Below, one piece after another: positions 11,323-64,000 of a stretch of DNA of 64,000 nucleotides. The position numbers and the translations under genes are program-made. Positions within the stretch are counted from its first letter, which is position 1. Each line of letters begins with the position of its first letter. The DNA lies in NCBI GenBank assembly GCA_965204745.1, contig OZ242010.1, positions 1,824,001 to 1,888,000 of the forward strand, read 5' to 3'. The stretch is from Candidatus Latescibacterota bacterium (GTDB lineage Bacteria; Latescibacterota; UBA2968). Below the pieces are notes generated by a model. The model was not told the origin of the DNA, did not search any database, and saw nothing but the letters and a program-made list of their open reading frames with translations.

Positions 11323-11411
11323 TTCTCTCTTGTATCTGTGGGCGAATCGCCCCTACACACACCGCTCGTCCTTTGAACTAGCTGTTGTCAGTTGTACCCC
11401 GCTCGTGGCTA
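11323..11411 (-). repeat. Composite ~90 bp repeat (38-bp hairpin unit + GTAG-REP-like hairpin + AGATACAAG end)
   Basis: Reverse copy of the unit seen at 28289, 52400 and 59160. Confidence 0.7.
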
Positions 11412-12189
11412 GGTTGTGTTGACATTTGCGAGCCATGCAACGGAATGGGGGCTTATCGAGAAGATCAAGCCCTATCGCAGGATATGCTCTCGATTTGAGA
11501 AACTCGGACAATCGCTCCTTATCGGGACCTACCCCCCTAGCCCCCCTTCCTGCGAGGAAGGGGGGAACGGTGAGCGGTTTTGCGAGGGGATTGATGAGGG
11601 ATATTTAATCGCTTTATGCCCTCGGTCAATCCATCAGAGCAACCAGAGTGAGAAGCCATCAAAGGAGCTTTACTCCCCCTTTCCTGCGAGGAAGGGGGGA
11701 ACGGTGAGCGGTTTTGCGAGGGGATTGATGAGGGATTTTTAGTCGCTTTATGCCCTCGGTCAATCCATCAGAGCAACCAGAGTGAGAAGTCATCAAAGGA
11801 GCTTTACTCCCCCTTTCCTGCGAGGAAGGGGGGAACGGTGAGCGGTTTTGCGAGGGGATTGATGAGGGATTTTTAGTCGCTTTATGCCCTCGGTCAATGC
11901 CATCAGAGCAACCAGAGCTAGAAGTCATCAAAAGAGCTTTACTCCCCTTTTCCTGCGAGGAAGGGGGGAACGGTGAGCGGTTTTGCGAGGGGATTGATGA
12001 GGGATTTTTAATCGCTTTATGCCCTCGGTCAATCCATCAGAGCAACCAGAGCGATAAGCCATCAAAGGAGCTTTACTCCCCCTTTCCTCGTAGGAAAGGG
12101 GGCCGGGGGGATAGGTCCCCTCGCGCAACGCCATCAGAGCAATTTGCTACTCTGTGCGGAACGTCCAAAAATAAAATGTCAACACGACC
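11412..12189 (+). mobile_element. Hollow IS5 (IS427-group) element carrying a repeat array
   Basis: TIRs GGTTGTGTTGACATTT / AAATGTCAACACGACC, TA on both flanks, transposase scrap LIEKIKPYRRICSRFEKL. Confidence 0.8.
11524..12119. repeat. Tandem array of 4 x ~134 bp units with 5 hairpins and its own terminal inverted repeats
   Basis: Hairpin CCCCYTTCCT-NNN-AGGAAGGGGG with centres near 11551, 11685, 11819, 11954, 12088; ends GGGACCTACCCCCC / GGGGGGATAGGTCCC. Confidence 0.92.
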
Positions 12190-12223
12190 TAAATTCCCCT
12201 CTTACGCCTTTCCCGGAGGATAT

Positions 12224-12703
12224 ATGGCATTTGACGCACGGCTACAGCGCGATATTATGGGGCGGTTTGCAACCGGGGTCACGGTTGTGACCACGCGATA
12301 CCAAAACGGGGATATAACGGGTATGACCGCCAATGCGGTGATGTCGTTGTCCTTGGAGCCACCGCTCGTTGTGGTGTCAGTGGATAAATCGGCGACCATG
12401 CACAGCGCGCTGTCGGACGGTCAGTGTTATGCCATCAATATCCTGACGCGCGAGCAAGAGCATTTGTCCAACCGATTTGCCGCGCCAGGGCCAAAGGATT
12501 TTTCCGACCTCAAATTGCGCGAACGCAAAACGGGCGCGCCGATTTTGGATGGCACGCTCGGGTATCTCGATTGCAAATTGGTGCATGTCCTGCCGGCTGG
12601 AGATCACGATATGTTCGTCGGCGAGATTGTGGATGGCGAGGTGGGATCGGGCGCGCCGTTGTTGTTTTACAGAGGGCAGTATCGGGGGATTGCTGAGGAG
12701 TAG
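12224..12703 (+). CDS. Flavin reductase family protein (DIM6/NTAB)
   Basis: MGRFATGVTVVTT, SLSLEPPL, AGDH, PLLFYRG; GGAGG RBS. Confidence 0.92.
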   Translation: MAFDARLQRDIMGRFATGVTVVTTRYQNGDITGMTANAVMSLSLEPPLVVVSVDKSATMHSALSDGQCYAINILTREQEHLSNRFAAPGPKDFSDLKLRERKTGAPILDGTLGYLDCKLVHVLPAGDHDMFVGEIVDGEVGSGAPLLFYRGQYRGIAEE

Positions 12704-12821
12704 GCGAAAAAAATAAAACGAGCGGTAATGAGACGTAGGGGCGCGGCCCCTGTGCCCGGCCGTAGATGCGAGAAATAGTGAACCGCTATCGCAGTTGTAC
12801 CCCGTTCCGCCTATTCGCCCC

Positions 12822-14501
12822 TCATACATCGACATACACTTCCAAAAATCGCTTTTCCCCTTCTGTGCTGCCGATGAGGATGATTTCCGAAGCTCTTGGC
12901 AATGGTTTATTGGGGGCGGGAGGCGTGCCATTGACCGCGATGACCGTGCAACCCGTGTTTTTGCGGATGGATGAATTGGCGATGGTTTTGCCGACGAGGG
13001 ACCGGGGAATTTTCATTCTGAACACGCTGAGGCCCTCGGGCAAGGTCAGGGTGTCGCTGCGTTCTAAGAGGTTGAAAATCGCGTCCGCGCCCATCGACGC
13101 ATACGACATGACGAAATCCGCGCCCGCGCGATGCAGGGTCGCGATGTTTTTTTCTTGCGAGACGCGGCTGATGATCTGAATTTCCGGATTGAGTCGGCGG
13201 CAATACACCGTGAGATACACATTGATATCGTCGTCATGCGTGGTGATGATGACGGTCAGCGCGTTCATAATATCGGCTTGTTTTAAGACCTCAAAATCCG
13301 CGGCATTGCCCACGATGCAGTTGTCCAACCCTCGAACTTGTTCCGGATCTTTTTCCACGATGCGGTAGTCGAGGCCGAGTTCGGTGAGGGTGCGTGCGGC
13401 TTCTTTGCCGACCCCGCCGCCGCCGATGATGACGACCGGCGCGGTCGAGGTTTTGTAGATGCAGAACAATTCGTTGAACCGATCTAATTGATGCTGTGAG
13501 CCTGTGAGCACGAGGACGGTGTGCGGGCCGATGGGCGTGTCCGGCAGTGCGGATTGAAAAATGCCGCGTTCCCAAACCCCGATAGCCGTGAGGCCCAGGT
13601 TTTTTCGCAAGCCGATTTCCTCGAGCGTTTTGCCCACGAGGGGCGTGTGGGTTACGGTGGTTTCGGCGATGATCAGTTCTTCGTACTGGCCGATCACATG
13701 CGCGGCAGCGTCTCCGCTTTGGGTGCGCCGAGCCAAAGACGCGCCGAGCATTTTTTCGAGTTGTAGCACATGCGTGCAACCCGCCAATTTGAGAATATCG
13801 ACGGAACGCGGGTCGTCTGCGCGGGCGATGATCGGCACAGTGGGATTGAGTTCGCGCACGGTAAAGGCGACGTGCGTGTTGATCGGGTCCGTATCTGTTG
13901 CGGCGACGAGCGCGGCTTGTTCGATCTGCAATTTCTCGTAGGTTTCCGGATTGTCGAAATCCCCCACGACGACCTCGATGCCTTGGTCGTGGAGTTGCAG
14001 GGCATCCGCCACGTCTGGCATGAGGAGATAATAAGTGTAGTGGTAGCGATCCAACTTGTTGATGAGGCTTTGCACAAGGGGGTCGTAGTGGGTCAACAAG
14101 ACATGCCCCCGGGTATTTGCGGGCAACTGACGCGGGGCGCGGTCTTCGGATTGGGCTTGGATCCACGGCGCGTAAAAAAACTGGATAAAGGCAAAGGGCA
14201 GGACGATGAGCAAAAAGACCATGCCAGTGATCAAGACCAGCACAGAGAACAACCGCCCCAAATCGCCCTGAAAGGTGATGTCGCCAAATCCCAGGGTGGA
14301 CATGGTCGTCAGCGTCCAATACAGCCCGGTAATCCAACTCGCCTCTTGACCTTCGCGGAGCATGAGAATGCGGAAAACGACGCTGAAGAGCGCGACGATG
14401 ATCGCCAAGGTCAACAACAACTTGAACAACGTGCGGAGATTCCGCCGATTGGCGCGCTTGTGCATCAACTGGGAAAGTTGTGTGACAACGCCTTTGAACA
14501 T
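12822..14501 (-). CDS. Potassium channel with tandem TrkA-N/TrkA-C (RCK) domains
   Basis: Two TM helices around the TMSTLGFGD filter; GGGGVG Rossmann motif; duplicated RCK. Confidence 0.9.
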   Translation of the reverse strand: MFKGVVTQLSQLMHKRANRRNLRTLFKLLLTLAIIVALFSVVFRILMLREGQEASWITGLYWTLTTMSTLGFGDITFQGDLGRLFSVLVLITGMVFLLIVLPFAFIQFFYAPWIQAQSEDRAPRQLPANTRGHVLLTHYDPLVQSLINKLDRYHYTYYLLMPDVADALQLHDQGIEVVVGDFDNPETYEKLQIEQAALVAATDTDPINTHVAFTVRELNPTVPIIARADDPRSVDILKLAGCTHVLQLEKMLGASLARRTQSGDAAAHVIGQYEELIIAETTVTHTPLVGKTLEEIGLRKNLGLTAIGVWERGIFQSALPDTPIGPHTVLVLTGSQHQLDRFNELFCIYKTSTAPVVIIGGGGVGKEAARTLTELGLDYRIVEKDPEQVRGLDNCIVGNAADFEVLKQADIMNALTVIITTHDDDINVYLTVYCRRLNPEIQIISRVSQEKNIATLHRAGADFVMSYASMGADAIFNLLERSDTLTLPEGLSVFRMKIPRSLVGKTIANSSIRKNTGCTVIAVNGTPPAPNKPLPRASEIILIGSTEGEKRFLEVYVDV

Positions 14502-14603
14502 ATCTGTAAGCCCTCGATGAGTGCGACAAAACAAACGAATCGGCGGACGGGGCATGATCGCGTAGTGATTTTGGGTGGATGGGCTGGGCGGCCTTCTTGC
14601 CTC

Positions 14604-14648
14604 TCCCGTTTCCCGTTTCCCGTTTCCCGTCTCCCGTCTCCCGTCTCA
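14604..14648. repeat. Heptamer microsatellite (CCCGTYT)n
   Basis: About 6 tandem units, intergenic. Confidence 0.9.
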
Positions 14649-14737
14649 CCGAAGGGAGTGAGCGGGGCGGAAAGTATAGCGTACCACCATTGTTGTGTCA
14701 ATTTGGTTATTTGCCGAGTTTAAGCAAGGAGTTCAAA

Positions 14738-16171
14738 ATGTCATCTGATATGCGGTACAATATCCTCCTCATGATTTCGGAAGACAACGGACAGCACTTG
14801 GGCTGTTATGGCGATCCCCATGCACAAACGCCGCATTTGGACGAACTGGCCTCTGAGGGCGTGCGCTTTGAAAATATGTACGCCACGCAAGCCGTGTGTA
14901 GTCCCGGGCGGGCGAGTATTTTGACCGGGTTGTATCCGCACCAGAATGGTCAGTTTGGATTGGCAACCCACAAATACGCGCTGTACGATCGGTTTCCCAA
15001 CCTGCCCGAGTTGTTGAAAAACGCGGGGTATCGTACCGGGCTGATCGGCAAATTGCACATCAACCCGGAAGATGCTTTTCCCTACGATCTGTGGCAAAAT
15101 CCCAAGGCGTGGATCAGTTTTGCCAACCGCGACGTCCACAAAATGGCCGAGGTCGCAGGCGCGTTTATGAACTCGTCGGATGCGCCGTTTTTCTTGCAGA
15201 TGAGTTTTCCAGACGCGCATCTGCCGTTTCACCGCCAACAATTCGGGGTGCCCGCACGGCCGCTAGATGGCAAAGACGTCGCGCCGCTCCCATTTGTCGG
15301 CATTGATACGCCGCGCCTCAGAGCGGAGACGGCGAATTATTACAACTGCATGTCCAGGTTGGATACGGGCGTGGGATTGGTGTTGGACCAGTTGAAAGCG
15401 ATGGGCAAGGCGGAAAATACGCTCGTGATTTTTACCACCGATCACGGCGCGCAGTTTTCACGCGGGAAAACATCGAGCTACGAGGGCGGGCTACGCATTC
15501 CGCTGATCGTGCGCTGTCCCGGCATGGGTGAAGGGCGCGTGCGCGACGAACTGATCTCGCAGGTCGATATTTTGCCGACCGTGGCCGACATCGCGGGGAT
15601 CGCATGTCCTCCCGGCGTGGCAGGGGCGTCGTTTGTGCCCCTTTTGAATGGCGAGGATACGGCATGGCGAACCCATCTGTACGCGGAGTGGGGAAGCGGC
15701 GGCGTGGTTACGTATTTTCCACAGCGTTGCGTGCGCGATGGGCGATTCAAGCTCATCGCCAATTTGCTCCAAGACCGCCCAAGCCCGAGCGCGCTGGGCT
15801 ATTCGGAACCGACGCAAAAGTGGGCATCTGGCGCGACGCGAGAGGAGATCGCGTGCGCGGATGAGCGCGTGCGAGCGGCTTATGACCTTTATGAACGCCC
15901 CCCCGAGTTCGAGCTTTACGACTTGCAGAACGACCCATGGGAATTTGAAAATCTGTCCGGTGATCGGGCATACGAAGCCGTGTTGCAGGGGCAAAAAAAT
16001 CGCCTTGCAAGGTGGCGAGCGGACACCGACGACGCCTTGCGACACCCCGAAAACCTAAACCGCCTCACGCGGAAACACGACGCGATTCGGGAACAGTACT
16101 ACGCAGAAAGCGCGTGGGGCAGTTCTCGAGACTACGAGTGGGATTACACCGAGTATCTCTACGAGCGTTAA
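14738..16171 (+). CDS. Sulfatase (N-sulfoglucosamine sulfohydrolase-like)
   Basis: CSPGR, LTGLYPHQNG, GKLH, FTTDHG, ELYDL..DPWE; AAGGAG RBS. Confidence 0.9.
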   Translation: MSSDMRYNILLMISEDNGQHLGCYGDPHAQTPHLDELASEGVRFENMYATQAVCSPGRASILTGLYPHQNGQFGLATHKYALYDRFPNLPELLKNAGYRTGLIGKLHINPEDAFPYDLWQNPKAWISFANRDVHKMAEVAGAFMNSSDAPFFLQMSFPDAHLPFHRQQFGVPARPLDGKDVAPLPFVGIDTPRLRAETANYYNCMSRLDTGVGLVLDQLKAMGKAENTLVIFTTDHGAQFSRGKTSSYEGGLRIPLIVRCPGMGEGRVRDELISQVDILPTVADIAGIACPPGVAGASFVPLLNGEDTAWRTHLYAEWGSGGVVTYFPQRCVRDGRFKLIANLLQDRPSPSALGYSEPTQKWASGATREEIACADERVRAAYDLYERPPEFELYDLQNDPWEFENLSGDRAYEAVLQGQKNRLARWRADTDDALRHPENLNRLTRKHDAIREQYYAESAWGSSRDYEWDYTEYLYER

Positions 16172-16180
16172 GGAGAAAAC

Positions 16181-17437: not shown

Positions 17438-17440
17438 ATA

Positions 17441-17600
17441 GCCACAAAAGGCACGAGCGGGGTACAACTGGCGACAGCCAGTTCAAAGGCACAAAAGGGG
17501 TACAACTGGCGATAGCCAGTTCAAAGGCACAAAAGGGGTACAACTGGCGATAGCCAGTTCAAAGGCACAAAAGGGGTACAACTGGCGACAGCCAGTTCAA
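17441..17600 (+). repeat. Tandem array, 4 x 38 bp hairpin unit
   Basis: GGTACAACTGGCGAYAGCCAGTTCAAAGGCACAAAAGG starting at 17461, 17499, 17537, 17575; no spacers. Confidence 0.92.
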
Positions 17601-17606
17601 GGATAC

Positions 17607-17647
17607 AAAAGCCCGTCTCCGCGGAGGTAAGCGGAGACGGGCTTTTT
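17607..17647. terminator. Bidirectional intrinsic terminator
   Basis: AAAA-GCCCGTCTCCGC-loop-GCGGAGACGGGC-TTTTT between convergent genes. Confidence 0.85.
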
Positions 17648-18904: not shown

Positions 18905-18920
18905 GATGTGTCCTTTGAAA

Positions 18921-21660: not shown

Positions 21661-21779
21661 TATCAACCCGTGTGTTCCCTGCCTCTCCACCCAGCCGCCC
21701 AAGTGCGATCCCTTCCCGACACCGCCCCGCCGTGTGCGTGCCCTGCCCCGCTCGCCTGTCGTCAACTTGACGATGGCCC

Positions 21780-21870
21780 TCTTGCGTCTCACGTCTTGCC
21801 TCTCGCCTCTCACCTCTCGCCTCTCACGTCTCACGTCTCGCCTCTTGCGTCTCATGTCTCGCCTCTCATC
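21780..21870. repeat. Degenerate heptamer microsatellite (CSTCTYR)n
   Basis: About 13 mixed units CCTCTCG/CGTCTCA/CCTCTTG. Confidence 0.85.
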
Positions 21871-21873: not shown

Positions 21874-22078
21874 GGCGCATGGTCTCTGTCTGTCTCGAAA
21901 CCACCGGGCTTTATCGCTTGGCGGTGGCCTTGGCCTTACATCGGCATCGCCGCACGCAGGTCATGGTCGTCAATCCCCATGCGATGATCAAGTACGCACA
22001 GCGGCATGACCAAGATTTTGAGGGCGAGAAATTCTATCGGATCACCGCGCAATCCCCTTGACCTTTAAGAGAGTATCT
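21874..22078 (+). mobile_element. Internally deleted IS110 remnant with intact right end
   Basis: In-frame fusion of MVSVCLE..VVNP..KYAQ to RHDQDFEGEKFYRIT, both matching the transposase at 55730-56737; ends TTGACC..AGAGTAT-CT. Confidence 0.9.
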
Positions 22079-22143
22079 CACTTCTTACCTCTTGTATCTT
22101 TCCTCAAATAAGCGGAGCGAATAATGGGGGCTAGAGATAGGTC

Positions 22144-23073
22144 ATGCAATTTTTCCACACGTACATCGACCCCACAGAACTGGCGCGCATTGCGGATTTG
22201 GAACTGTTGGCGCGCACGGTGATCGCCGGGTTGCACGGGGGGGCGCATCGCAGCATGCACTTTGGGGCGTCGGTCGAGTTCGCGCAGTACCGGCCCTATG
22301 TGCAGGGCGATGATCCGCGCTTTGTGGATTGGCGGTTGTACGGGCGTAGCGACCGCTTGCACGTCAAGCAATTTCAGGATGAGCGCGATTTGCGATGCAC
22401 GGTTTTGTTGGATTGTAGCGCGTCTATGGATTACGGGTCCGGGAGCGTGGACAAATTTCGCTACGCACAGATGTTGGCCGCATGCGTGGCAATGCTGGCC
22501 GCAAATCAGGGCGATGTGGTGGGCTTTGCCGCGTACCACCGGGAATTGATAACCCGCGTGCCTGCGCGGCGAAAAGACGGGCAACGCCACCGCATTTTGA
22601 CAGCGATAGCCAATGCGAGACCCGCGGGCGAATCGACGGATACCGCGGGCGCGTTGCGCGCGATGGGCGAGGTGTTGCCCGCACGCGGCATGGTGGTGTT
22701 GATCGGGGATTTGTTGCATCCTGCGGACGAGATGATTTTGCACTTGCGTTCCCTGCGGGCGCAACGTCACGATGTGTTGGTGTTGCAAGTGAGCGATCCG
22801 GCCGAGCAGACATTTCCGTTTGACCGGGCGATCACGCTGGTCGAAGCCGAGGGTGGGCGCGAGCAATACGCGGTGCCCGAGGCCGTGCGCGAAGCCTATT
22901 TGGAAAATCGCGCGCGCCATTTTGCGGGCATCCGAGAAGCGTGTTTGACGTCTGAAATCGACATTGAAGAATTTGTGTGTTCGCAACCATTAGACGAGGC
23001 ATTGCACCGGTTTTTGTATCGGCGCAACCGAGGGCTGATCGCGTCGAGCACGCGGGCGCGAGGAGGGGCATAA
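22144..23073 (+). CDS. DUF58 / vWA domain protein (MoxR-associated)
   Basis: G.SVEFAQYRPY.QGDD.R.VDW, LLDCSASM MIDAS. Confidence 0.9.
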   Translation: MQFFHTYIDPTELARIADLELLARTVIAGLHGGAHRSMHFGASVEFAQYRPYVQGDDPRFVDWRLYGRSDRLHVKQFQDERDLRCTVLLDCSASMDYGSGSVDKFRYAQMLAACVAMLAANQGDVVGFAAYHRELITRVPARRKDGQRHRILTAIANARPAGESTDTAGALRAMGEVLPARGMVVLIGDLLHPADEMILHLRSLRAQRHDVLVLQVSDPAEQTFPFDRAITLVEAEGGREQYAVPEAVREAYLENRARHFAGIREACLTSEIDIEEFVCSQPLDEALHRFLYRRNRGLIASSTRARGGA

Positions 23074-34198: not shown

Positions 34199-34247
34199 CC
34201 CCTCCCCGAGGCGGGGCGGACCGACTACTGACCACTGACCACTGACA

Positions 34248-34518
34248 ATGCGAATTAAGAGTAGAAAGCGAGTAAGAAGCAAGCCGCGGTCAATCGCCCA
34301 AAGACATGAACGAGTAAGCCATCCTCTGATCGTACCCGAGACGCCATCGAGAGGTTTGTCTTTTGTTCAATCCAACTGAACAAGGACGCTATCGGCTGTC
34401 GCATGCTCGAAACCGCCCGAGAAAAGTCTTTTTCGGCTTCGGTCAGGCTTTCTTGCCTCTTCTTTCGCTTCACCGGCGTCTCGAAGATCAGGTTCTGCTG
34501 TTTGCTAAGCGTATCTTT
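34248..34518 (-). mobile_element. IS982-family remnant (3' end with TIR)
   Basis: ATGCGAATTAAGAGT end; KDTLSKQQNL...FLLAFYS near-identical to the full copy; flank TGACA in a heptamer run. Confidence 0.9.
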
Positions 34519-38400: not shown

Positions 38401-38645
38401 AAGGCGGGAGACGAAAGGCGGAAGACGGGAGAAGCAAGACGGGAGAAGGCATCGCCCCTACACACTGCTCGCCTTTGAACTAGCTATCGCCAGTTGTACC
38501 CCGCTCGTGCCTTTTGTGCTTTTTGTGGCTGTCGCCTTTGAACTGGCTGTCGCCTTTGAACTAGCTGTCGCCTTTTGTGCTTTTTGTGGCTGTCGCCTTT
38601 GAACTGGCTGTCGCCTTTTGTGCCTTTTGTGCTTTTTGTGACTAA
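38384..38645. repeat. Repeat cluster: purine heptamers, REP-like hairpin, reversed 38-bp units, TTTTGTGCY nonamers
   Basis: GGGAGA-based heptamers, GCCCCTACA, repeated CCTTTGAACTRGCTRTCG. Confidence 0.8.
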
Positions 38646-46711: not shown

Positions 46712-47109
46712 ATGCGAATAAAGCGTTGAATCCATTTATTGGGACCTACCCCCCTGGCCCCCCTTCCTGTGAGGAAGGGGGGAATGGCGAGGGGTTGTGC
46801 GAGGGGTTTTCGCATTCGTTCGCCCTGCGGTATTCGCGGCAATCATGGGAATGGCGAGGGGTTGTGCGAGGGGTTTGGGTTTCCAGGGCGTGATCTATTC
46901 GCTCAAAGCCATCAGAACAGCCAGGGAGACAAACCTTCAAAAAGCCATGCGCTCCCCCTTTCCTTGTAGGAAAGGGGGCCGGGGGGATAGGTCCTACGAG
47001 GAAGGGGAAGAACATCTATCGTTGCGGAGAGGAGCCGGATGACTCGTCCATGTCTTTGGGCGATTGGGCGCGGCTTGCTTCCTACTCGCTTTCTACTCTT
47101 AATTCGCAT
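46712..47109 (+). mobile_element. Hollow IS982 derivative carrying a palindromic repeat; 5-bp TSD CTGAT
   Basis: Left end ATGCGAATAAAGCGTTGAATCCAT, right end ..CTACTCTTAATTCGCAT, CTGAT at 46707-46711 and 47110-47114. Confidence 0.88.
46741..46994. repeat. Palindromic repeat element related to the 134-bp array
   Basis: Same ends GGGACCTACCCCCC / GGGGGGATAGGTCC and CCCCYTTCCT..AGGAAGGGGG hairpins. Confidence 0.88.
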
Positions 47110-52380: not shown

Positions 52381-52475
52381 CGTTCGCTCCAAAGGTGAAA
52401 GGCGAGCCGTGTGTAGAGGCGATGCCCCCGTGCTCGCCCAAAGATACGAGAGGGAAAGGCAGTTGTCAGTTGTCA

Positions 52476-53459
52476 ATGCGAATTAAGAGTTGAATCCATC
52501 GCGTACTTGTCTTTTCTTGAGGGCTCAGTCATTTCACCCTTAAAGGAAGGAGCACGCGATGGATTGGCAAGATAAACTCATTCACTTGTATGTCTATATT
52601 TGTCAGCAGTATGACCAAAAGCATCTGTGGTTTTATACGGAACGCATGAGCAATAACGATACGCCGACCTTCACAGATGAAGAAGTGCTGACGATCTATT
52701 TGTTTGGGATCATGCAACAGCACACGCAGATCAAGGCGATTTATACCTATACCAAGGATCATCTTTCCGACTGGTTTCCCCATCTGCCCACTTATGCAGG
52801 CTATATCCAGCGGTTGAACCGCTTGTGTGTGGTCTTCGCGCCATTGATTGAACAAATCCAAAAGGACAGTCCCGCAACCGATCTCTCTGAACACACCTAC
52901 TTGGTGGATTCCATGCCGATTGTCATGGCACAATCGGCACGCAGCGGTCAGGCGTGTGTGGCCGAAGAACAACTGGCCAACAAAGGCCGCTGCGCTTCCA
53001 AAAAGATGTGGTATTACGGCACCAAACTGCACATTGTCGCACAAGACCGTGAGAACGGCCTCCCGAAAGCAGAGTACATCGGCTTGACAGGTGCAGCAGA
53101 GCATGACCTGACCGCTTTGCGACAAGTCTTACCCGTTTTGCGTGATGGACACCTCTACGGCGATAAAATCTACGCCGATCAGCCCTTAAAAGACACGCTT
53201 AGCAAACAGCAGAACCTGATCTTCGAGACGCCGGTGAAGCGCAAGAAGGGACAAGAAAGCCTGACCGAAGCCGAAAAAGACTATTCTCGGGCGGTTTCGA
53301 GCATACGACAGCCGATTGAGGCCTTGTTCAGTTGGATTGAACGAAAGACGAACATCTCGATGGCGTCTCGGGTACGATCCTATGAGGGCTTACTCGTTCA
53401 TGTCTTTGGGCGATTGACCGCGGCTTGCTTCTTACTCGCTTTCTACTCTTAATTCGCAT
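52476..53459 (+). mobile_element. IS982-family element, 984 bp, intact; TSD TGTCA
   Basis: TIRs ATGCGAATTAAGAGT / ACTCTTAATTCGCAT; TGTCA on both flanks within (TGTCAGT)n. Confidence 0.93.
52559..53452 (+). CDS. IS982-family DDE transposase
   Basis: FTDEE, VDSMPI, YYG.KLH, HD, GDK.Y, RQPIE..FS. Confidence 0.92.
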   Translation: MDWQDKLIHLYVYICQQYDQKHLWFYTERMSNNDTPTFTDEEVLTIYLFGIMQQHTQIKAIYTYTKDHLSDWFPHLPTYAGYIQRLNRLCVVFAPLIEQIQKDSPATDLSEHTYLVDSMPIVMAQSARSGQACVAEEQLANKGRCASKKMWYYGTKLHIVAQDRENGLPKAEYIGLTGAAEHDLTALRQVLPVLRDGHLYGDKIYADQPLKDTLSKQQNLIFETPVKRKKGQESLTEAEKDYSRAVSSIRQPIEALFSWIERKTNISMASRVRSYEGLLVHVFGRLTAACFLLAFYS

Positions 53460-53522
53460 TGTCAGTTGTCAGTTGTCAGTTGTCAGTTGACTAATTCTAA
53501 CGAACCATAGCGGTGGGGAGCG

Positions 53523-54892: not shown

Positions 54893-55633
54893 ATGGATTT
54901 GGTTCGCAAAATTTTGCGCGAAGCCGCCCTGTTTTGCGCGTGTGCCATCTTTGTGGCAGGCGTCGGGTTGATCCTCATGGATCAAATCGTCATGCCGCGC
55001 TACGTGCGCCAAGGCGTGGAAGTAACCGTGCCCGATCTCAAAGGACTGACACCCGAGCAGGCACGGGCGCGGTTGCAGGCAGAGGGCCTGCACATGAAAG
55101 AACGCGAACCGCGATGGGATGCGTCCATGCCCGCGGGGCAAATCGCGTGGCAAAACCCGGCCGCGCTGTCGCACGTCAAGCCCCATCGCACGGTCTATGT
55201 CGCGCCGAGTTTGGGCGAGCGTCTGTACGCCGTGCCGGATCTTCGCAACCGGCCCTTGCGACAGGCGCGGTTGTGGATCGCCCGAGCAGAATTGGCGGTC
55301 GGCGAGGTCATCGAGATGGCCTCGGCAGAGATCGAGGAAGGCAATATCATCGAGCAGACGCCCAAAGCCGGCGAGCAAGTCGTCCACGGGACGCCGGTCG
55401 CGCTCACAGTGAGCACCGGGCCACATCGCGCTTTTGTCGCCATGCCCGTGGTGGAGGAACTCAAATTGGACGACGCGCGGCGTTTGTTGTCCTCCCTCGG
55501 CCTGCGCGCAGACAATATCCGCTACGAATTTAGCACCGCGTACGAACCCGACGTCGTCATTCGCCAAGACCCCGAACCCGACACGCCGATCAAACGCGGG
55601 ACAAGCGTGCAACTTGTCGTGAGTAAGTTGTGA
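54893..55633 (+). CDS. Membrane-anchored triple PASTA domain protein
   Basis: N-terminal TM; three VP.L.G...A...L..G.I..Q.P..G-type repeats. Confidence 0.9.
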   Translation: MDLVRKILREAALFCACAIFVAGVGLILMDQIVMPRYVRQGVEVTVPDLKGLTPEQARARLQAEGLHMKEREPRWDASMPAGQIAWQNPAALSHVKPHRTVYVAPSLGERLYAVPDLRNRPLRQARLWIARAELAVGEVIEMASAEIEEGNIIEQTPKAGEQVVHGTPVALTVSTGPHRAFVAMPVVEELKLDDARRLLSSLGLRADNIRYEFSTAYEPDVVIRQDPEPDTPIKRGTSVQLVVSKL

Positions 55634-55696
55634 AAGGCGTAAAGGCGTAAAGGCGTAAAGGCGTAAAGGCGTAAAGGCGTAAAGGCGTAAAGGCGT
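55633..55696. repeat. Octamer microsatellite (AAAGGCGT)8
   Basis: Eight perfect units counted. Confidence 0.95.
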
Positions 55697-55729
55697 GAGA
55701 GGTAAGAGGCAAGATACTCTCTTAAAAGG

Positions 55730-56737
55730 TCAAGGGGTTTTCGGGGTGATTCGATAGAATTTTTCGCCCTCAAAATCTTGGTCATGGCGCAACATGCCCC
55801 AGATCGAATGGAGCAACTTTCGCATCACCGCAACGATAGCCTGCAAAGGTTTCTTGCCGCGGGCGATGAGTTGGTCATAGAAGGCTTTGACATGGCCTTC
55901 GTGTCTGATGGCCACCCAGGCAGGCATATAGAGGGCATGGCGGAGGTACTTATTCCCGGTTTTCGAGATGCGTCTTTGTGGATTGGCGGTTCCGGATTGT
56001 TTGGGTTTGGGATCCAGGCCTGCATGTGCGACCCACTGGGGCGGTTGCATCTCCTCTGGCAAAAGGGTCAACTCGGCCAAGAGCCGCAAGGCACTCGTTT
56101 GCGCGATGCCAGGCGTCGAGCAGAGGCGTTGGTAGGCACGCTTGAGGGGCTCATCGTGCAAAACGAGATCGAGGGCTTGGCTTTCCAAGTATGCAATCCG
56201 GCGTTTGAAGTGTCGAATATTCACCTGAATATCGCGTGCGATGAGACGTGTGCTGCGGATGTGGTAGCTCTGCGCGTGGTTGCGGCTCTGTTCGCGGATG
56301 ATCTCCTGCTTGAGTTGGTCAATGCGTCTGGTGAGGGCTTGCAGTTGAAGCCGTTGCTCGCTCGGCGCTTGCCAAGGCACAAAAGGCATGCGCTCGGCAT
56401 AGTCGAGGATCAACAACGCATCCTTCGCATCCGTCTTCGCCCGTTGCATGCAGGCTTGGGCGTACTTGCTCATCGCTTTGGGATTGACGACCATGACCTT
56501 TGTGTGGCGATGCCGATGCAAGGCCAAGGCCACCCCCAAACTGTAAAGCCCGGTCGCTTCGAGGCACACAGAGACCATGTGCCCGCCCTTCGTGAGCCAC
56601 TTCAGCAACCGCTTATGCGCTTGGGGATCATTGGCAAAGGTCGCTTGCATGACAGCTTGTCCGGGTCTGGACAGGGCAACGGACAACGTGCGGGCACTGA
56701 CATCAATGCCGGCAAAAGCGGGGTGAGATTTCGACAT
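55730..56737 (-). CDS. IS110 DEDD recombinase/transposase
   Basis: GIDVS, CLEATG, KTD.KDA, QSGT serine, ISKTGN, A..RKL; AGGAGG RBS. Confidence 0.95.
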   Translation of the reverse strand: MSKSHPAFAGIDVSARTLSVALSRPGQAVMQATFANDPQAHKRLLKWLTKGGHMVSVCLEATGLYSLGVALALHRHRHTKVMVVNPKAMSKYAQACMQRAKTDAKDALLILDYAERMPFVPWQAPSEQRLQLQALTRRIDQLKQEIIREQSRNHAQSYHIRSTRLIARDIQVNIRHFKRRIAYLESQALDLVLHDEPLKRAYQRLCSTPGIAQTSALRLLAELTLLPEEMQPPQWVAHAGLDPKPKQSGTANPQRRISKTGNKYLRHALYMPAWVAIRHEGHVKAFYDQLIARGKKPLQAIVAVMRKLLHSIWGMLRHDQDFEGEKFYRITPKTP

Positions 56738-56794
56738 GGGGGCCTCCTGTGATGAGGGGGTTGTAAGGGATCTGGTGCGCGCTCGGGGTCGCGT

Positions 56795-56990
56795 CCCGAC
56801 CATTGACGCCAAGTCTACCGGTCTTGTATATGCAGCCTCAAGGGGCTTAGATACTCTTCGGCATAGACCCGGCGGTCGGGGGGCCTATCTTACCTACAAG
56901 GTCATCGCCTTCAAGAGGGGCCGGCCTTCCCCGAGCCGGGCATCAAGATGGCTTATCTCGATACGAGGGCGCAACTCCTAATTAACCCTT
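56795..56990 (-). ncRNA. IS110 bridge RNA (boundaries approximate)
   Basis: Donor loop guides AGAGTATCT (56857-56849) and ATACAAGA (56829-56822) match the element ends; target loop guides GGCCCCTCT (56922-56914) and AGGTAAGA (56895-56888) match the insertion site; closing stems visible. Confidence 0.85.
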
Positions 56991-57119
56991 ACTTCCAAGA
57001 TACAAGAGGGGAGAAGGCCAGCCGATTACCCCAAAATGCGAGGAGTGGATCGTAGGGACAGGCACAGGGCCTGTCCAAATCCGCGGTTAGCGAAACAAAT
57101 TAACCCTTTCGAGAAAGGA

Positions 57120-59096: not shown

Positions 59097-59244
59097 GAGA
59101 GCCACAAAAGGCACAAAAGGCACAAAAGGGGTACAACTGGCAACAGCCAGTTCAAAGGCACAAAAGGGGTACAACTGGCGATAGTCCGTTCAAAGGCGGG
59201 CCGTGTGTAGGGGCGATGCCCCCGTGCTCGTCCAAAGATACAAG
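59068..59244 (+). repeat. Nonamers + 38-bp units + GTAG-REP-like hairpin + AGATACAAG
   Basis: Same family as 17441-17600, 28289 and 11323; overlaps the 3' end of the preceding gene. Confidence 0.85.
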
Positions 59245-59266
59245 GTATAAGGGTGGGGGAAGCTCG

Positions 59267-59506: not shown

Positions 59507-59508
59507 TT

Positions 59509-59757
59509 ATGACAAAAGAAAATCATTTTCCCCGACACTTTGCCCTCTGTATCGACAATGAGGGATACGAGGCTTCGCTCGAAGTGGGCAAGGTTTATCG
59601 CGTCATTCCCGATGAAGCCGCCGCCGATCATGGCTATATTCGCATCGTTGATGAAAGCGGTGAAGATTACGCTTTTGGCGACCACCGCTTTCATCGCATT
59701 GCCCTGCCCGCTGCCGTTGGTGAAGTGTTGATATCTGCCCAGCGAGTCGTAGATTGA
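59509..59757 (+). CDS. Small acidic protein, putative antitoxin/immunity partner
   Basis: SLE.GKVY.V...IRIVDESGEDY; 2 bp after the previous stop. Confidence 0.75.
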   Translation: MTKENHFPRHFALCIDNEGYEASLEVGKVYRVIPDEAAADHGYIRIVDESGEDYAFGDHRFHRIALPAAVGEVLISAQRVVD

Positions 59758-59770
59758 GGAGGCGAATCAC

Positions 59771-59895
59771 ATGTTCGATATTCACGGCGTTCTGAAGGAC
59801 TTGTCCAAGCATCGCCCGATCTTTTGTTCGGAGGCGGATTTCCAAGACGCTCTCGCATGGCAGATTCAGGAGGCGATGCCGGATTGTGAGATTGG
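59771..59895 (+). pseudogene. N-terminal fragment of a probable PD-(D/E)XK nuclease-like gene
   Basis: GGAGG RBS; RPIF.SEADFQ.ALAW.I, after which the reading looks non-coding. Confidence 0.5.
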
Positions 59896-60016
59896 ATCTC
59901 TCCAAAAAAAGAAATACCGGACCTTTGTATTCCGTCTGAACGCATTGCAAAAGCAAAGGGCTTGCGAGATCGAATCGCAAGCCCTTCTGTCTCAAAATCA
60001 AACCGTCTTTTTGGGA

Positions 60017-60223
60017 TCAAGATGCCCACTTGAGCTTTTTCTTTGACTGGACGCAGTCCAGCAGATACAGGTTGATCAAATTCTGGTATGGAATACCCGT
60101 TTCGTCCGCCAAGTCCTTAAAATACGCGATAACATCCGTCCCCAAGCGCAATGTGACTTGCTTTTTCAAATGCTTTGTATATGGGTTTTTGACGGATTTC
60201 GAGAAGTCGTATTCTTTTTTCAT
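60017..60223 (-). CDS. brnA: BrnA-family antitoxin
   Basis: MKKEYDFS...NPY, VTLRL..DVI.YFK, GIPYQ.LIN.YL. Confidence 0.9.
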   Translation of the reverse strand: MKKEYDFSKSVKNPYTKHLKKQVTLRLGTDVIAYFKDLADETGIPYQNLINLYLLDCVQSKKKLKWAS

Positions 60224-60330
60224 CGCAAATACCTTTCGTATTGTCGTTGTTCGTTGTTGTTGGCCTTTCGCGCAGAAATAATTCTGATCACTGTATCCTC
60301 CTCTCGATGACAGTGGCTGACAACCAAAAT
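60220..60330 (-). pseudogene. brnT: BrnT toxin C-terminal fragment
   Basis: ILVVSHCHRE...IRIISARKA...E..QY; the N-terminal half is missing where the SDR 5' region begins. Confidence 0.85.
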
Positions 60331-60342
60331 TAGGAGAAAACC

Positions 60343-61077
60343 ATGAGATTGCAAAACAAAAACATCGTCGTCACCGGGGGGGCGTCGGGGATTGGGCGGG
60401 CCGCGGCGCGATGCTGTGCGCGGGAAGGCGCGCGCGTGGCGGTTGTGGATTTGGATGGGGAGGGCGTTGAACGCACGGTGCGGGAAATCGAACGGGCAGG
60501 TGGATGTGCAAATGGGTTTCGGGCAGATGTGAAAGACGAGGCGCAGGTGCGCGACTTGTTTGACGATATCGGCGGAGCCTTTGGGCACATCGACGGCTTG
60601 ATCCACGCCGCGGGCATCCTCGAAGGCGCGCTCGTTCCCGTGGATGACTTTGACGAAGTGACGTGGGACAGGGTCATCGACATCAATTTGAAAGGGAGTT
60701 TTCTCGCGGCAAAGTACGCGGTGCCGTGGATGGAAAACGCGGGCAAAGGCGTCATCGCGCTCATCGCGTCTGGCGCGGGGGTCAAAGGCGGGAGTTCATC
60801 TGTGGCGTATGGATCGAGCAAGGGCGGCGTTCACGGCTTGTCCTTGGTGCTGGCAGCGCAACTGGGCAACCGCAAGATCCGCGTTCACGGCGTTTGCCCG
60901 GGCGGGATTGAGACCCCGTTGAAAATGCGCGTCGTCCAAAAACAAGCCGATGCCTCGAGGCGCGATGTGGCGCACTTGGCTGCCGGGCTTGGCGACCCCG
61001 AGGGCGTGGGCAAAATTTTGTCCTTTCTCGTATCTGACGACGCGGATTACGTGCGCGGCACGATTTTCACGCGATAG
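60343..61077 (+). CDS. Short-chain dehydrogenase/reductase
   Basis: TGGASGIG, AAG, INLKG, YGSSK, PG. Confidence 0.93.
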   Translation: MRLQNKNIVVTGGASGIGRAAARCCAREGARVAVVDLDGEGVERTVREIERAGGCANGFRADVKDEAQVRDLFDDIGGAFGHIDGLIHAAGILEGALVPVDDFDEVTWDRVIDINLKGSFLAAKYAVPWMENAGKGVIALIASGAGVKGGSSSVAYGSSKGGVHGLSLVLAAQLGNRKIRVHGVCPGGIETPLKMRVVQKQADASRRDVAHLAAGLGDPEGVGKILSFLVSDDADYVRGTIFTR

Positions 61078-61086
61078 GAGGCGACC

Positions 61087-61956
61087 ATGCGCTTGGGTGT
61101 TGTTGGCCTGTTGCCCCGGGATTTTCGCACTTTAGAACCGGCCCATCTGCAAGCCGTGCAAAACCTCGGCTTCACGGGTTGCGCGTTTCACTTTCCCGGA
61201 GAACTGTGCGGGGAAATCACCACTGTGGACACGGCGCGGTGCCGCGCGCTTTTTGCTGACCACGAGCTCGACCTCGCGCAATTTTCCATCACTTATTCGG
61301 AATGCCTGTTTGACCCGGATGCAGACGTGCGAAATGCCATTGTCGCCAAAATCAAACGGGGCGCGGAAATCGCCGCGGGCCTGTCTGCCCAGACCTACTT
61401 GTTGCGCCCGGGCAGCCGCAATCCCGCGGGCAGTTGGACGCCCCATCGCCACAACCACACGCGAGCGGCCTGGGACTGCCTCATCCAAACCCTGCGCGAC
61501 ATCGCGCCCACGCTCGAACAACGCGGCGTCACAGGGGTCATGGAAACCCACCTCGTCTCCATCCTCAAAAACCCGCACACCTGCCGCGCTATGGTCGAAA
61601 GCGTGGGGTCTGCCAACCTGCGCTTGGTGATGGACTACGTGAATCACTTCGAGACCCTGAGCCAAGTCTATGACAGCGCAGAACGGTTGGATCACATCTT
61701 CGCCGAGATGGGCGCGTACGCGCCGATTATGCACATCAAGGATATCGCTATCGGCAAGGGACTCGTGCTCCACCTCGATGAAACCGTGCCAGGCCATGGC
61801 GAACTCGACCTCGCGCATTGCTTGCGGCACTTCCAACGCCTCTTTCCCGACAACTACGGCCTCATCGAACACCTTCCCCCCGACCGCATTCCCGAAGCCG
61901 CGACCAACACGCACGATATTGCGGAGCGGGCGGGCGTTCCGATAGGCGAAAAGTAG
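61087..61956 (+). CDS. Sugar phosphate isomerase/epimerase (xylose isomerase-like TIM barrel)
   Basis: METH, MD.VN, HIKD, PG.G..D, IEH. Confidence 0.88.
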   Translation: MRLGVVGLLPRDFRTLEPAHLQAVQNLGFTGCAFHFPGELCGEITTVDTARCRALFADHELDLAQFSITYSECLFDPDADVRNAIVAKIKRGAEIAAGLSAQTYLLRPGSRNPAGSWTPHRHNHTRAAWDCLIQTLRDIAPTLEQRGVTGVMETHLVSILKNPHTCRAMVESVGSANLRLVMDYVNHFETLSQVYDSAERLDHIFAEMGAYAPIMHIKDIAIGKGLVLHLDETVPGHGELDLAHCLRHFQRLFPDNYGLIEHLPPDRIPEAATNTHDIAERAGVPIGEK

Positions 61957-61970
61957 CCACCCCCAAATTC

Positions 61971-62035
61971 CAGTTGTCAGTTGTCAGTTGTCAGTTGTCA
62001 GTTGTCAGTTGTCAGTTGTCAGTTGTCAGTTGTCA
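61971..62035. repeat. Heptamer microsatellite (CAGTTGT), about 9 units
   Basis: Perfect tandem units. Confidence 0.95.
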
Positions 62036-63017
62036 ATGCGAATCAAGAGTAGAAAGCGAGTAAGAAGCAAGCCGCGGTCAATCGCCCAAAGACATGAACG
62101 AGTAAGCCCTCATAGGATCGTACCCGAGACGCCATCGAGATGTTCGTCTTTCGTTCAATCCAACTGAACAAGGCCTCTATAGGCTGTCGCATGCTCGAAA
62201 CCGCCCGAGAAAAGTCTTTTTCGGCCTCGGTCAGGCTTTCTTGTCCCTTCTTTCGCTTCACCGGCGTCTCGAAGATCAGGTTCTGCTGCTTGCTAAGCGT
62301 ATCTTTTAAGGGCTGATCGGCGTAGAGTTTATCGCCGTAGAGGTGTCCATCACGCAAAACGGGTAAGACTTGTCGCAAAGCGGTCAGGTCATGCTCTGCT
62401 GCGCCTGTCAAGCCGAAGTACTCTGCTTTGGGCAGGCCATTCGCTCGGTCTTGTGCGACAATGTGCAGTTTAGTGCCGTAATACCACATCTTTTTGGAAG
62501 CGCAGCGGCCTTTGTTGGCCCGTTGTTCTTCAGCCACACATGCCTTTCCGCTACGTGCCGATTGTGCCATGACAATCGGCATGGAATCCACCAAGTAGGT
62601 GTGTTCACAGACATCGGTTGCGGGACTGTCCTTTTGGATCTGTTCAATCAATGGCGCGAAGACCACACACAAGCGGTTCAACCGCTGGATATAGCCTGCA
62701 TAAGTGGGCAGATTGGGAAACCAGTCGAACAGATGATCCTTGGTATAGGTATAAATCGCCTTGATCTGCGTGTGCTGTTGCATGATCCCAAACAAATAGA
62801 TCGTCAGCACTTCTTCATCTGTGAAGGTCGGCGTGTCGTTGTTACTCATGCGTTCCGTATAAAACCACAGATGCTTTTGGTCATACTGCTGACAAATATA
62901 GACATACAAGTGAAAGTTTATCTTGCCAATCCATCGCGTGCTCCTTCCTTTAAGGGTGAAATGACTGAGCCCTCAAGAAAAGACAAGTACGCGATGGATT
63001 CAACTCTTAATTCGCAT
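62036..63017 (-). mobile_element. IS982-family element, 982 bp; TSD TGTCA
   Basis: Same TIRs as 52476-53459 (one substitution), opposite orientation. Confidence 0.93.
62043..62934 (-). pseudogene. IS982 transposase, frameshifted near codon 7
   Basis: AAACTTTCAC versus AAACTCATTCAC in the intact copy: 2-bp deletion after the ATG at 62934. Confidence 0.85.
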
Positions 63018-63290
63018 TGTCAGTTGTCAGTTGTCAGTTGTCAGTTGTCAGTTGTCAGTTGTCAGTTGTCAGTTGTCAGTTGTCAGTTGTCAGTTGTCAG
63101 TTGTCAGTTGTCAGTTGTCAGTTGTCAGTTGTCAGTTGTCAGTTGTCAGTTGTCAGTTGTCAGTTGTCAGTTGTCAGTTGTCAGTTGTCAGTTGTCAGTT
63201 GTCAGTTGTCAGTTGTCAGTTGTCAGTTGTCAGTTGTCAGTTGTCAGTTGTCAGTTGTCAGTTGTCAGTTGTCAGTTGTCAGTTGTCAGT
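63018..63290. repeat. Heptamer microsatellite (TGTCAGT)39
   Basis: 273 bp of perfect units. Confidence 0.95.
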
Positions 63291-64000
63291 GGCGTTGTTG
63301 CATAAATGTTGTCGTGGCGAAGTTCGTCCCTTTCCCGCGAGATTTAAGCCCTTCTTTCTATGGGATAGGACACGGGTTTCGCGATCCTCATCATGCGATT
63401 GAGCACCGCACATCCCAACAGTGCTTCCGTTTCTTGGTTCTTCTGATTTCGTGCGCGCAACTGCCGCCCAATGAGTTGCTTATAGCGGCCTATGTGGGTT
63501 TCAACGACCGAGCGACGATGATAGCCACTGGTGCGTTTCCACTTTCGGCGGCCTTGACGCCGGATGGCTCGGATGATTTCATCGCGGGCGAGGGGGGGCG
63601 CCTTCCTGTTTCCGTGTTGTTCAATTTTCGCGTCATGGCGCGGGGGAATCAGAGGTCGGATGGGGGCTCCTTGTTTGGGGGCGGCGCATGTGTTGAAGAC
63701 CTTGCGTTTGTCATAGCCGCCATCTGCGCCCAGCGTATGGACAGGGGCCGGGACTTGATCGAGCAAGGGGTTGACCTGCGAAGCGTCATCAACGCTTGCC
63801 GAAGTCAGGGTCTGTGCGACAAGCTCCCCGGTGGCCGCATTGACGCCGATGTGCAATTTGCGCCAAGTCCTGCGCTTGCAAAAGCCGTGTTGACGCACCT
63901 TCCATTCCCCTTCGCCATACCCTTTCAGGCCGGTAGAATCCACCACTAAGTGGATCGGCGCGTGACGGGATTGGACAGGTAAATCCACATTCAAATCGCC
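63291..64000 (-). mobile_element. IS5-family (IS903 group) element, runs off the window
   Basis: End GGCGTTGTTGCATAAATG resembles the IS903 TIR GGCTTTGTTGAATAAATC as recalled. Confidence 0.88.
63344..64000 (-). CDS. IS5/IS903-group DDE transposase (5' truncated by the window edge)
   Basis: VDSTGLK.YGEGEW, RRTWRKLH, ADGGYD, GYHRRS.VET. Confidence 0.93.
   Translation of the reverse strand, partial: GDLNVDLPVQSRHAPIHLVVDSTGLKGYGEGEWKVRQHGFCKRRTWRKLHIGVNAATGELVAQTLTSASVDDASQVNPLLDQVPAPVHTLGADGGYDKRKVFNTCAAPKQGAPIRPLIPPRHDAKIEQHGNRKAPPLARDEIIRAIRRQGRRKWKRTSGYHRRSVVETHIGRYKQLIGRQLRARNQKNQETEALLGCAVLNRMMRIAKPVSYPIERRA

Follow-up and report, generated by a model that had tools for sequence, protein, structure and literature searches.

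The 64,000-nucleotide stretch of DNA analysed here in full (the window: positions 1,824,001-1,888,000 of contig OZ242010.1, assembly GCA_965204745.1, Candidatus Latescibacterota bacterium) belongs to a single-contig genome of 5,482,115 bp with a G+C content of 56.5%, called G000 below where it must be told apart from related genomes such as G016 and G018 (31 genomes were compared in all). It carries insertion sequences (IS) of three families, namely IS110, IS982 and the IS903 group of IS5, whose ends lie in intergenic tandem arrays of heptanucleotide units; the relation between these elements and these arrays is the subject of this report. A preliminary description of the window, made from the sequence alone, had proposed that the arrays serve as shared landing sites and that the repeat classes are divided among the elements. 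The nearest public relatives of the window's IS110 recombinase are found on complete chromosomes labelled Latescibacterota, and the stretch itself is present in public sequencing runs labelled sponge metagenome.

Heptamer arrays of the window and the genome

Tandem Repeats Finder (TRF) detects at least 12 arrays with a period of 7-8 in the window, where at least ten had been described before, and these comprise two sequence classes and one 8-mer array. Class A consists of CAGTNGT and its rotations, and class B of NNC[CGT]TCT, which corresponds to GAGGYRA, the form first described, on the opposite strand. The arrays found by TRF are as follows.

14602, 18919, 21778 and 28183: class B (CCTCT) arrays
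19933, 29928, 34223, 52460, 53459, 61971 and 63017 (39 copies): class A (CAGTNGT) arrays
61971..62035, plus strand: class A array of 9.3 CAGTTGT units, left flank of the second IS982 copy
63018..63290, plus strand: class A array of 39 TTGTCAG units, common to an IS982 end and an IS903-group end
55633-55696: 8-mer array

Genome-wide, tandem repeats of at least four copies are dominated by period 7 (550 repeats, vs 37 of period 6 and 10 of period 8), and the arrays are thus tandem, intergenic and over-represented relative to other periods, as heptameric intergenic simple sequence repeats are. Genes were called with a crude self-trained open reading frame (ORF) scorer (3,747 genes, 84% coding), which leaves 846 kb of non-coding DNA. 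Class A amounts to 333 segments (14.9 kb, 1.8% of non-coding DNA) and class B to 440 segments (23.6 kb, 2.8%) by TRF with period 14/21 rows merged; the share of bases not covered by a called ORF is 91% in class A and 80% in class B. Approximately 12% of intergenic intervals contain arrays, and across the genome both the orientation of the arrays relative to genes and the type of intergenic interval are unbiased.

The arrays are lineage-specific: a four-unit class A pattern has 798 matches in G000 and 0-43 in each of the 30 relatives, and the class B pattern has 528 matches in G000, 219 in G018 and at most one in each other relative. A conserved C-rich motif terminates 168 of the 333 class A arrays (by a loose pattern), and for about one quarter of class A arrays an oppositely oriented class B array lies no more than 80 bp away; where this partner is on the C-rich side, the linker most often measures 21-26 bp. 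The arrays are therefore modules of composite dispersed repeats, so that the term ‘intergenic microsatellites’ used earlier holds for the tandem heptamers themselves, although not in the sense of free-standing repeats.

Enrichment and class partition of insertion sequences

Full copies were collected by BLAST with element cores, giving 52 IS110, 15 IS982 and 17 IS903-group copies, together with three control families: IS701 (13 copies), a second IS5 group with DUF4096 (8 copies) and IS605/TnpB (4 copies). Two of the IS982 copies count as one duplication, leaving 14 independent ones. A copy was assigned to an array if it lay within 10 bp of class A or within 16 bp of class B; among 400,000 random intergenic points, 2.3% and 3.8%, respectively, satisfy these limits.

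All three families lie in arrays far more often than expected from the arrays' share of intergenic DNA, the genome-wide comparison that the preliminary description had called for. IS110 is found at class B arrays in 37 of 52 full copies (2.0 expected, P=8.6e-41), the IS903 group at class A arrays in 12 of 17 (0.39 expected, P=1.3e-16), and IS982 at class A arrays in 8 of 14 independent copies (0.32 expected, P=2.2e-10). To bring these values to P=0.05, arrays would have to make up at least 59%, 48% and 33% of permissible DNA for IS110, the IS903 group and IS982, respectively, so the enrichment is independent of the gene calls. Termini of partial copies also lie at class A arrays (15 of 38 for IS982, 6 of 16 for the IS903 group).

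The proposed partition of the repeat classes proved complete: IS110 has 37 copies at class B and none at class A, and the two DDE families have 20 at class A and none at class B (Fisher P=8e-16). Array use is confined to three of the six IS families, since the 25 control copies are absent from both array classes (IS701 0/13, second IS5 group 0/8, IS605/TnpB 0/4).

The IS110 element and its target

The IS110 element of the window and its flanks comprise the following features.

55712..57004, minus strand: full IS110-family element of 1293 bp, starting TGTATCT and ending GAGTATCT, core CT; one of the 52 full copies
55730..56737, minus strand: IS110 recombinase gene (ATG at 56737; the longest ORF reaches 56812)
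57005..57013, minus strand: left target and core, CTCCCCT-CT, one class B unit
55698..55711, minus strand: right target, two class B units (TGCCTCT TACCTCT), then the 8-mer array
56818..56926, minus strand: guide-bearing core of a bridge-RNA-like non-coding RNA, two stem/internal-loop/stem modules
56882-56926, minus strand: target loop, with left target guide (LTG) CCCCTCT and right target guide (RTG) GGTAAGA
56818-56861, minus strand: donor loop, with left donor guide (LDG) AGAGTATCT and right donor guide (RDG) ATACAAGA

The recombinase matches the Pfam domains DEDD_Tnp_IS110 (PF01548, 87 bits) and Transposase_20 (PF02371, 72 bits), as well as the NCBIfam model NF033542, ‘IS110 family RNA-guided transposase’ (213 bits, cut-off 140). 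Over its full length it matches ISCro4 (E=8e-40) and IS621 (E=5e-36), for which structures have been solved (8wt6, 9t56), and its GIDVS, CxEAT, KTDAxDA and SK(T/A)G motifs align with ISCro4. The element has neither terminal inverted repeats nor a target duplication, and its core is a short CT. Left ends read TGTAT(C/G)T, with one GCTATCT, and are immediately preceded by CT in 51-52 of 52 copies; right ends read GTATCT, and hence finish in CT, in all 52. Once joined, the flanks restore an uninterrupted, in-phase array (...CCCCTCT|TACCTCT...).

The ends of the window's copy are also visible in contigs from sequencing runs: an IS110 contig begins at 55712, and unique contigs of two runs stop at 57003. 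Among the contigs of four sequencing runs none bridges an empty IS site; the joints found there have sides shorter than 30 nt, fall in repeats and were left out. GTATCT, which is common to both junctions, was considered as a 6-bp crossover; this would place TTGTATCT in the target and imply that there is no empty target. The model was rejected because the donor-loop guides set the left end at TGTAT after CT, which leaves the flanks as an in-phase array.

The guides all lie within a 267-nt region upstream of the recombinase ATG, the target guides in the second module. RNAalifold predicts the two stem/internal-loop/stem modules, and among five aligned left ends the scaffold is conserved while variation is concentrated in the two target guides. 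LDG AGAGTATCT equals the IS110 right end, and reverse-complementing RDG ATACAAGA gives TCTTGTAT, in which CT is joined to the start of the left end (CT+TGTAT). On the target side, LTG equals the left target (LT) plus core in sense, and RTG GGTAAGA is the reverse complement of the core plus the right target (RT; CT+TACC).

Guide matches were counted in the 47 main-type IS110 copies, the other five forming an 88% subtype. The seven-base left target is CTCCCCT in 33 of the 47, and the five-base right target is TACCT in 24 and TGCCT in 17. Over the 12-nt site, 20 copies match their guides perfectly, and 17, 7, 2 and 1 copies have one, two, three and four mismatches, respectively; TGCCT, the commonest right target with a single mismatch, would form a G-U wobble. 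Perfect 12-mers are occupied in 20 cases and unoccupied in five.

Guides change together with flanks in four lineages. RTG GGTAAGA of the main type accompanies TACCT, and RTG AGTAAGA of the 88% subtype accompanies TACTT in four of five copies. In OY282377.1, RTG GAAAAGA is found with TTTCT at six of seven loci, none of them in arrays. In OZ251458.1 the guides are TCGCCTCT and GGGAGA and the flanks ..CGCCT-CT / CCC..; right targets there start with CCC at 16 of 18 loci (CCCGT at 14 of 18), and 17 of 18 lie in a class B context. Targeting of IS110 by an RNA guide, which the preliminary description had put forward, is thus supported by sequence comparison.

The left end of IS110 would accordingly encode a bridge RNA, probably expressed and guiding recombination. 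LTG would recognise a single class B unit, the last two bases of which are the CT core, and RTG would pair with CT and the first five bases (TACCT) of the next unit; from these matches the programmable target would be approximately 14 nt long and consist of two adjacent array units, with recombination taking place just after CT and leaving no duplication.

Further IS110 remnants lie elsewhere in the window, preceded by a class B array at 21778-21867.

21874..22078, plus strand: internally deleted IS110 fragment (BLAST element positions 423-549 and 1216-1294) with a true right end
22079..22099, plus strand: two class B units, then a solo CT/TGTATCT left-junction-like site (CT at 22091-22092, TGTATCT from 22093)

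Elsewhere in the genome (G000:C1:1121591-1124180), a tandem pair of IS110 copies is separated by one unit plus core, the second copy having used the unit pair that arose next to the first.

DDE elements in class A arrays

The DDE elements of the window are listed here.

52476..53459, plus strand: IS982-family element of 984 bp, inverted repeats ATGCGAATTAAGAG, 5-bp duplication TGTCA
62036..63017, minus strand: second IS982 copy, duplication TGACA, between 9-unit and 39-unit CAGTTGT arrays
34248..34518, minus strand: IS982 terminal fragment of 270 bp (element positions 714-983), abutting the CAGTGGT array at 34223-34246
47043..47109, plus strand: solo IS982-type terminal fragment, outside arrays, overlooked in the preliminary description
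63291..64000, minus strand: IS903-group element of the IS5 family, 1176 bp, extending 466 bp beyond the window end, 9-bp duplication GTTGTCAGT

The junctions first described at 55712, 22091, 34248, 52476, 62036 and 63291 are exact, and that at 22077 is corrected to 22078. The first IS982 copy lies inside a CAGTTGT array (52460-52475 and 53459-53489). Its transposase matches NCBIfam NF033520 (148 bits, cut-off 130), and its inverted ends are ATGCGAATTAAGAG / CTCTTAATTCGCAT. The IS903-group transposase matches NF033579 (IS5_2; 327 bits, cut-off 140) and the Pfam domains DDE_Tnp_1_5 and DDE_Tnp_1; with ends of GGCGTTGTTGCATAAAT, the element combines an IS5-type DDE transposase, inverted repeats of about 17 bp and a 9-bp duplication, the last of which we take to be a mark of the group. 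The IS982 protein also matches IS5 NCBIfam models, and DDE_Tnp_1 is common to both, which makes IS982 and the IS903 group distant homologues; of the ‘three unrelated IS families’ initially described, the three families stand, but not their being wholly unrelated.

Exact duplications flank 11 of 15 IS982 copies (5 bp) and 11 of 17 IS903-group copies (9 bp). The eight IS982 copies in arrays carry TGACA (five), TGTCA (two) or CAGTA (one), in both orientations, and duplications outside arrays are TGGTG, TGACG, TAACA and TTTCA. All 12 IS903-group copies in arrays carry GTNGTCAGT or its reverse complement, and the chance of one register in seven is (1/7)^11 = 5e-10. This 9-mer is centred on TGTCA, the IS982 duplication. 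The use of a single register of seven in both orientations points to target capture by the transposase rather than ectopic recombination between arrays. DDE-element copies that are 100% identical to another copy, and hence recently transposed, are found in arrays and elsewhere.

The two DDE transposases would thus capture class A arrays at one fixed register, through staggered cuts of 5 bp (TGTCA) and 9 bp (GTTGTCAGT) that would be centred on the same TG-N-CA step, in which case each array unit offers one good site. That this preference reflects direct sequence recognition is what we infer.

Left and right arrays differ or are inverted at six IS903-group copies (3785277, 4171808, 4981785, 3624382, 4257370 and 4314313). 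Where the units do not match, CAGTAGT or CAGTGGT always stands to the left of the element and CAGTTGT to its right. Both kinds of flank may reflect arrays homogenised independently on the two sides, insertion where two arrays meet, or recombination involving different copies.

Weighing the explanations

We consider it likely (probability roughly 0.8) that the two intergenic families of heptamer array are preferred sites of three IS families, reached through two different mechanisms. This reading is carried by what the genome directly displays: enrichment, partition by class, a fixed register, guide-target matches and covariation of guides with flanks. Insertions in arrays would also miss genes and so persist, which would add survivorship to preference, although that selection contributes at all is a matter of inference; for the DDE elements a weaker survivorship component is suggested by the data but is not significant.

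Several points weigh against this reading. TGTCA sites number 804 in arrays vs 1,576 elsewhere in intergenic DNA, and part of the IS982 excess is therefore explained by motif density, although the IS903-group excess is not. Five IS903-group duplications outside arrays show no common motif, and a 70%-identical IS903-group relative in OZ253462.1 has none of its 14 copies in arrays and likewise no common motif. The remaining 15 of 52 IS110 copies sit at two- or three-unit sites too short for TRF. Copies are not fully independent, two IS982 copies representing one duplication and five IS903-group copies having unmatched left and right flanks. The gene calls are crude, which makes the intergenic share approximate, a limitation covered by the 33-59% sensitivity bound.

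The motif-less duplications of the IS903 group outside arrays and of its OZ253462.1 relative imply that the preference does not depend strictly on sequence and might arise indirectly. The DDE elements might then be drawn to class A by DNA structure or by a repeat-bound host protein, the register following from local geometry; this is improbable, yet it is the alternative that survives best. In its favour, the cuts of both transposases, distant relatives though they are, share the TG-N-CA step as their centre, and the IS982 excess persists after matching for TGTCA, as all seven TGTCA/TGACA duplications lie in arrays vs 34% of such intergenic sites. Against indirect attraction, no protein that binds the arrays was found, the arrays are left entirely untouched by IS701 and the second IS5 group, and the IS982 duplications outside arrays resemble the array site, as a weak direct consensus predicts.

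A far less probable explanation is survivorship only, in which all three elements insert at random and are retained only in harmless arrays. The arrays do lie largely outside called ORFs, older IS903-group copies are in arrays more often than young ones (9/10 vs 3/7; Fisher P=0.06 one-sided, 0.10 two-sided), and some young IS903-group copies outside arrays have called ORF sequence on both flanks; IS982 copies show no age trend in array residence. However, each array class makes up less than 3% of intergenic DNA where survivorship alone would need 33-59% of permissible DNA, 25 copies of three other IS families persist without any array, and three of the seven young IS903-group copies are in arrays already; nor does selection predict a single register, complete partition or guide-target complementarity. 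Between the ‘target preference or purifying selection’ first offered for the DDE elements, the fixed register, the young copies in arrays and the array-avoiding controls favour preference, and the survivorship component falls short of significance (P=0.06).

Slightly less credible still is that heptamer homology let copies spread from array to array, by ectopic homologous recombination or by gene conversion and not by transposition, which would keep the register automatically. The constant register agrees with it, as do four IS903-group copies whose left units are CAGTAGT and right units CAGTTGT, and another two with inverted flanks, which are possible recombination remnants. Conversion would not, however, yield both orientations at the same 5-mer or 9-mer, as seen for IS982 (five TGACA, two TGTCA) and for the IS903 group, where copy 3690171 is wholly reversed and single flanks are reversed at 4257370 and 4314313. 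Identical young copies with perfect duplications also occur at unrelated sites outside arrays, and conversion is inapplicable to IS110, whose flanks follow its guides.

Least probable of all is that the IS themselves made the arrays, by amplifying target duplications or junctions. The commonest class B unit, CCTCTTG, equals LT plus core extended by two bases from the start of the IS110 left end, and of the three genomes in which this IS110 clade occurs, just two are rich in class B arrays. Yet an IS982 or IS903-group terminus is touched by only 53 of the 333 class A arrays, and a full IS110 end by only 45 of the 440 class B arrays, so the elements did not make them. Moreover, the arrays keep their phase across each element, class B arrays are lacking in G016 even though it has seven copies of the IS110 clade, and class A arrays occur in several genomes.

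Comparison with known systems

Bridge RNAs of IS621 and other IS110 elements direct recombination to dispersed repeats (Durrant et al. 2024, PMC11208160). The element studied here shares with IS621 a recombinase with DEDD and Ser residues, a CT core, the lack of inverted repeats and duplication, a left-end non-coding RNA with target and donor loops and the same LTG/RTG strand logic, a donor loop more conserved than the target loop, and natural targets that are dispersed genomic repeats. It differs in that its target is two consecutive 7-nt array units, in place of a repetitive extragenic palindromic (REP) sequence. It also differs in abundance, with 52 full copies, 20 of 25 perfect sites filled and guide sub-lineages that follow unit variants.

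Several IS families use REP elements as insertion hot spots (Tobes and Pareja 2006, PMC1525189). The arrays resemble REPs in being extragenic dispersed repeats that more than one IS family targets within a genome, sparing genes. The arrays differ in being direct, non-palindromic tandem heptamers, which do not qualify as REPs or bacterial interspersed mosaic elements (BIMEs), in the lack of a REP-associated tyrosine transposase (RAYT) gene, and in the strict division of two sequence classes between a DEDD element and two DDE elements.

Over-represented intergenic heptameric repeats have been described in Xanthomonas and Nostoc, where they are generally not associated with insertion sequences and polymerase slippage is proposed as their origin (Rehm et al. 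2015, PMC4692102). Like those heptamers, the arrays of G000 number in the hundreds and are intergenic, lineage-specific and variable in length; in contrast to them, 12-16% of the G000 arrays touch IS ends, and the unit sequences differ.

Comparable repeats include the short tandemly repeated repetitive (STRR) heptamers of cyanobacteria. IS903 elements generate 9-bp and IS982 elements 5-bp duplications, and both have terminal inverted repeats and a generally loose choice of target. The strong one-register bias towards a microsatellite, seen in G000 only, departs from such loose targeting and is absent from the OZ253462.1 relative (0/14). Among the papers that our literature searches listed, supplements aside, none reports microsatellite arrays as a target of IS; tables of natural targets in the bridge-RNA papers may include tandem repeats. 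IS hot-spot repeats and bridge-RNA targeting are known; microsatellites as a partitioned IS target are new.

The system offers a natural case in which an approximately 14-nt programmable bridge-RNA target consists of two microsatellite units, so that slippage and unit mutation would keep making and destroying sites and guide variants would track unit variants. Guide-target co-evolution can be observed directly in related complete genomes, and new natural guide-target pairs become available for work on bridge recombinases. Loosely specific DDE transposases can become nearly site-specific where a genome offers periodic arrays, which extends the idea of REPs as IS hot spots to simple sequence repeats. 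Array targeting would also explain why few genes are disrupted in a 5.5-Mb genome that holds 52 full copies of IS110 and repeats totalling about 1 Mb.

REP-like hairpin elements

G000 contains 105 REP-like hairpins of the form TGTATCTT-YGGGCGAGCAC...TCGCCC-CTAC, two of them in the window.

52395-52450, minus strand: hairpin element
22093-22140: hairpin element

The first eight nucleotides of the hairpin (TGTATCTT) equal the start of the IS110 left end, and a CT core precedes it in 95 of 105 cases, most often as CCCCTCT, the exact left-target unit. The hairpins therefore mimic the IS110 left junction (left target, core and right donor) over 10-15 nt. Among the 31 genomes, the hairpin pattern has 72 matches in G000, 109 in G016, 198 in G018 and at most two in any other, and the IS110 clade, traced by its donor-loop pattern, is found only in the same three genomes (54, 7 and 17 matches, respectively). 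The link between hairpin and IS110 thus consists of a 10-nt identity and co-occurrence, and the three genomes may be close kin.

Three accounts of the hairpins were set aside. Against mini-IS110 elements, a right-end-like GTATCT follows in only nine of 105. Guide-directed insertion is not supported, since in 14 of 20 cases in G016 a T stands before the core, where that genome's own left guide predicts C. A RAYT as generator of the hairpins was rejected for the absence of any match to Y1_Tnp (PF01797) anywhere in the genome, the same search matching six of 14 control genomes.

It is conceivable, although we think it rather doubtful, that the IS110 bridge recombinase shapes the class B repeats, the hairpins being by-products or non-autonomous passengers of one-ended or half-match recombination and CCTCTTG having been seeded from the junction. 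If so, guides and microsatellite would co-evolve as a self-renewing safe harbour.

Neighbouring genes and other repeats

Window genes beside the insertions have full-length Pfam domain matches, so that no recognisable gene of the window is interrupted, as had been stated from the start. The ORF at 22144-23073 encodes a DUF58 protein by Pfam and not a transposase. No Rfam family reaches its gathering score in the window, and the IS110 copy gives chance-level matches only.

The IS982-type ends at 34248 and 47043-47109 bracket 12.9 kb of ordinary genes and have no matching duplication. Elsewhere in the genome, inverted IS982-type termini enclose repeated units of 6-12.7 kb, and nine of 11 such pairs lie in a class A unit context; examples are as follows.

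G000:C1:415776-423685 (locus L150): IS982-bounded repeated unit
G000:C1:1705435-1712544: IS982-bounded repeated unit
G000:C1:2352004-2364672: IS982-bounded repeated unit
G000:C1:2995045-3000983: IS982-bounded repeated unit

Their TGACA flanks do not prove transposition of the units, because the register is fixed in any case. The 7.9-kb unit carries one ORF of 2,360 amino acids (aa), present in seven copies, which matches nothing in Pfam except, weakly, the GLUG motif. Solo IS982 end fragments of approximately 65-100 bp number another 62, 16 of which abut class A arrays detected by TRF. An IS701-family copy lies inside the left end of an IS982 copy at both G000:C1:3321882-3323935 and 3871592-3873645; as the nested pair occurs twice with identical flanks, it represents a segmental duplication.

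By self-comparison, about 1.0 Mb (18%) of the genome consists of repeats of at least 300 bp. The large repeats include multi-copy ORFs without a Pfam match (783-830 aa in 13 copies; 203 aa in 35 copies) and multi-copy AAA-ATPase/PDDEXK_9 genes. In addition, a 38-bp dispersed unit (AAAGGCACAAAAGGGGTACAACTGGC..) often lies downstream of the hairpin element, and a 134-bp unit occurs in 4.2 tandem copies. In the window, such repeats are located as follows.

17447-17611, 38469-38640, 59103-59197 and 11541-12102: other dispersed or tandem repeats (38-bp and 134-bp units)

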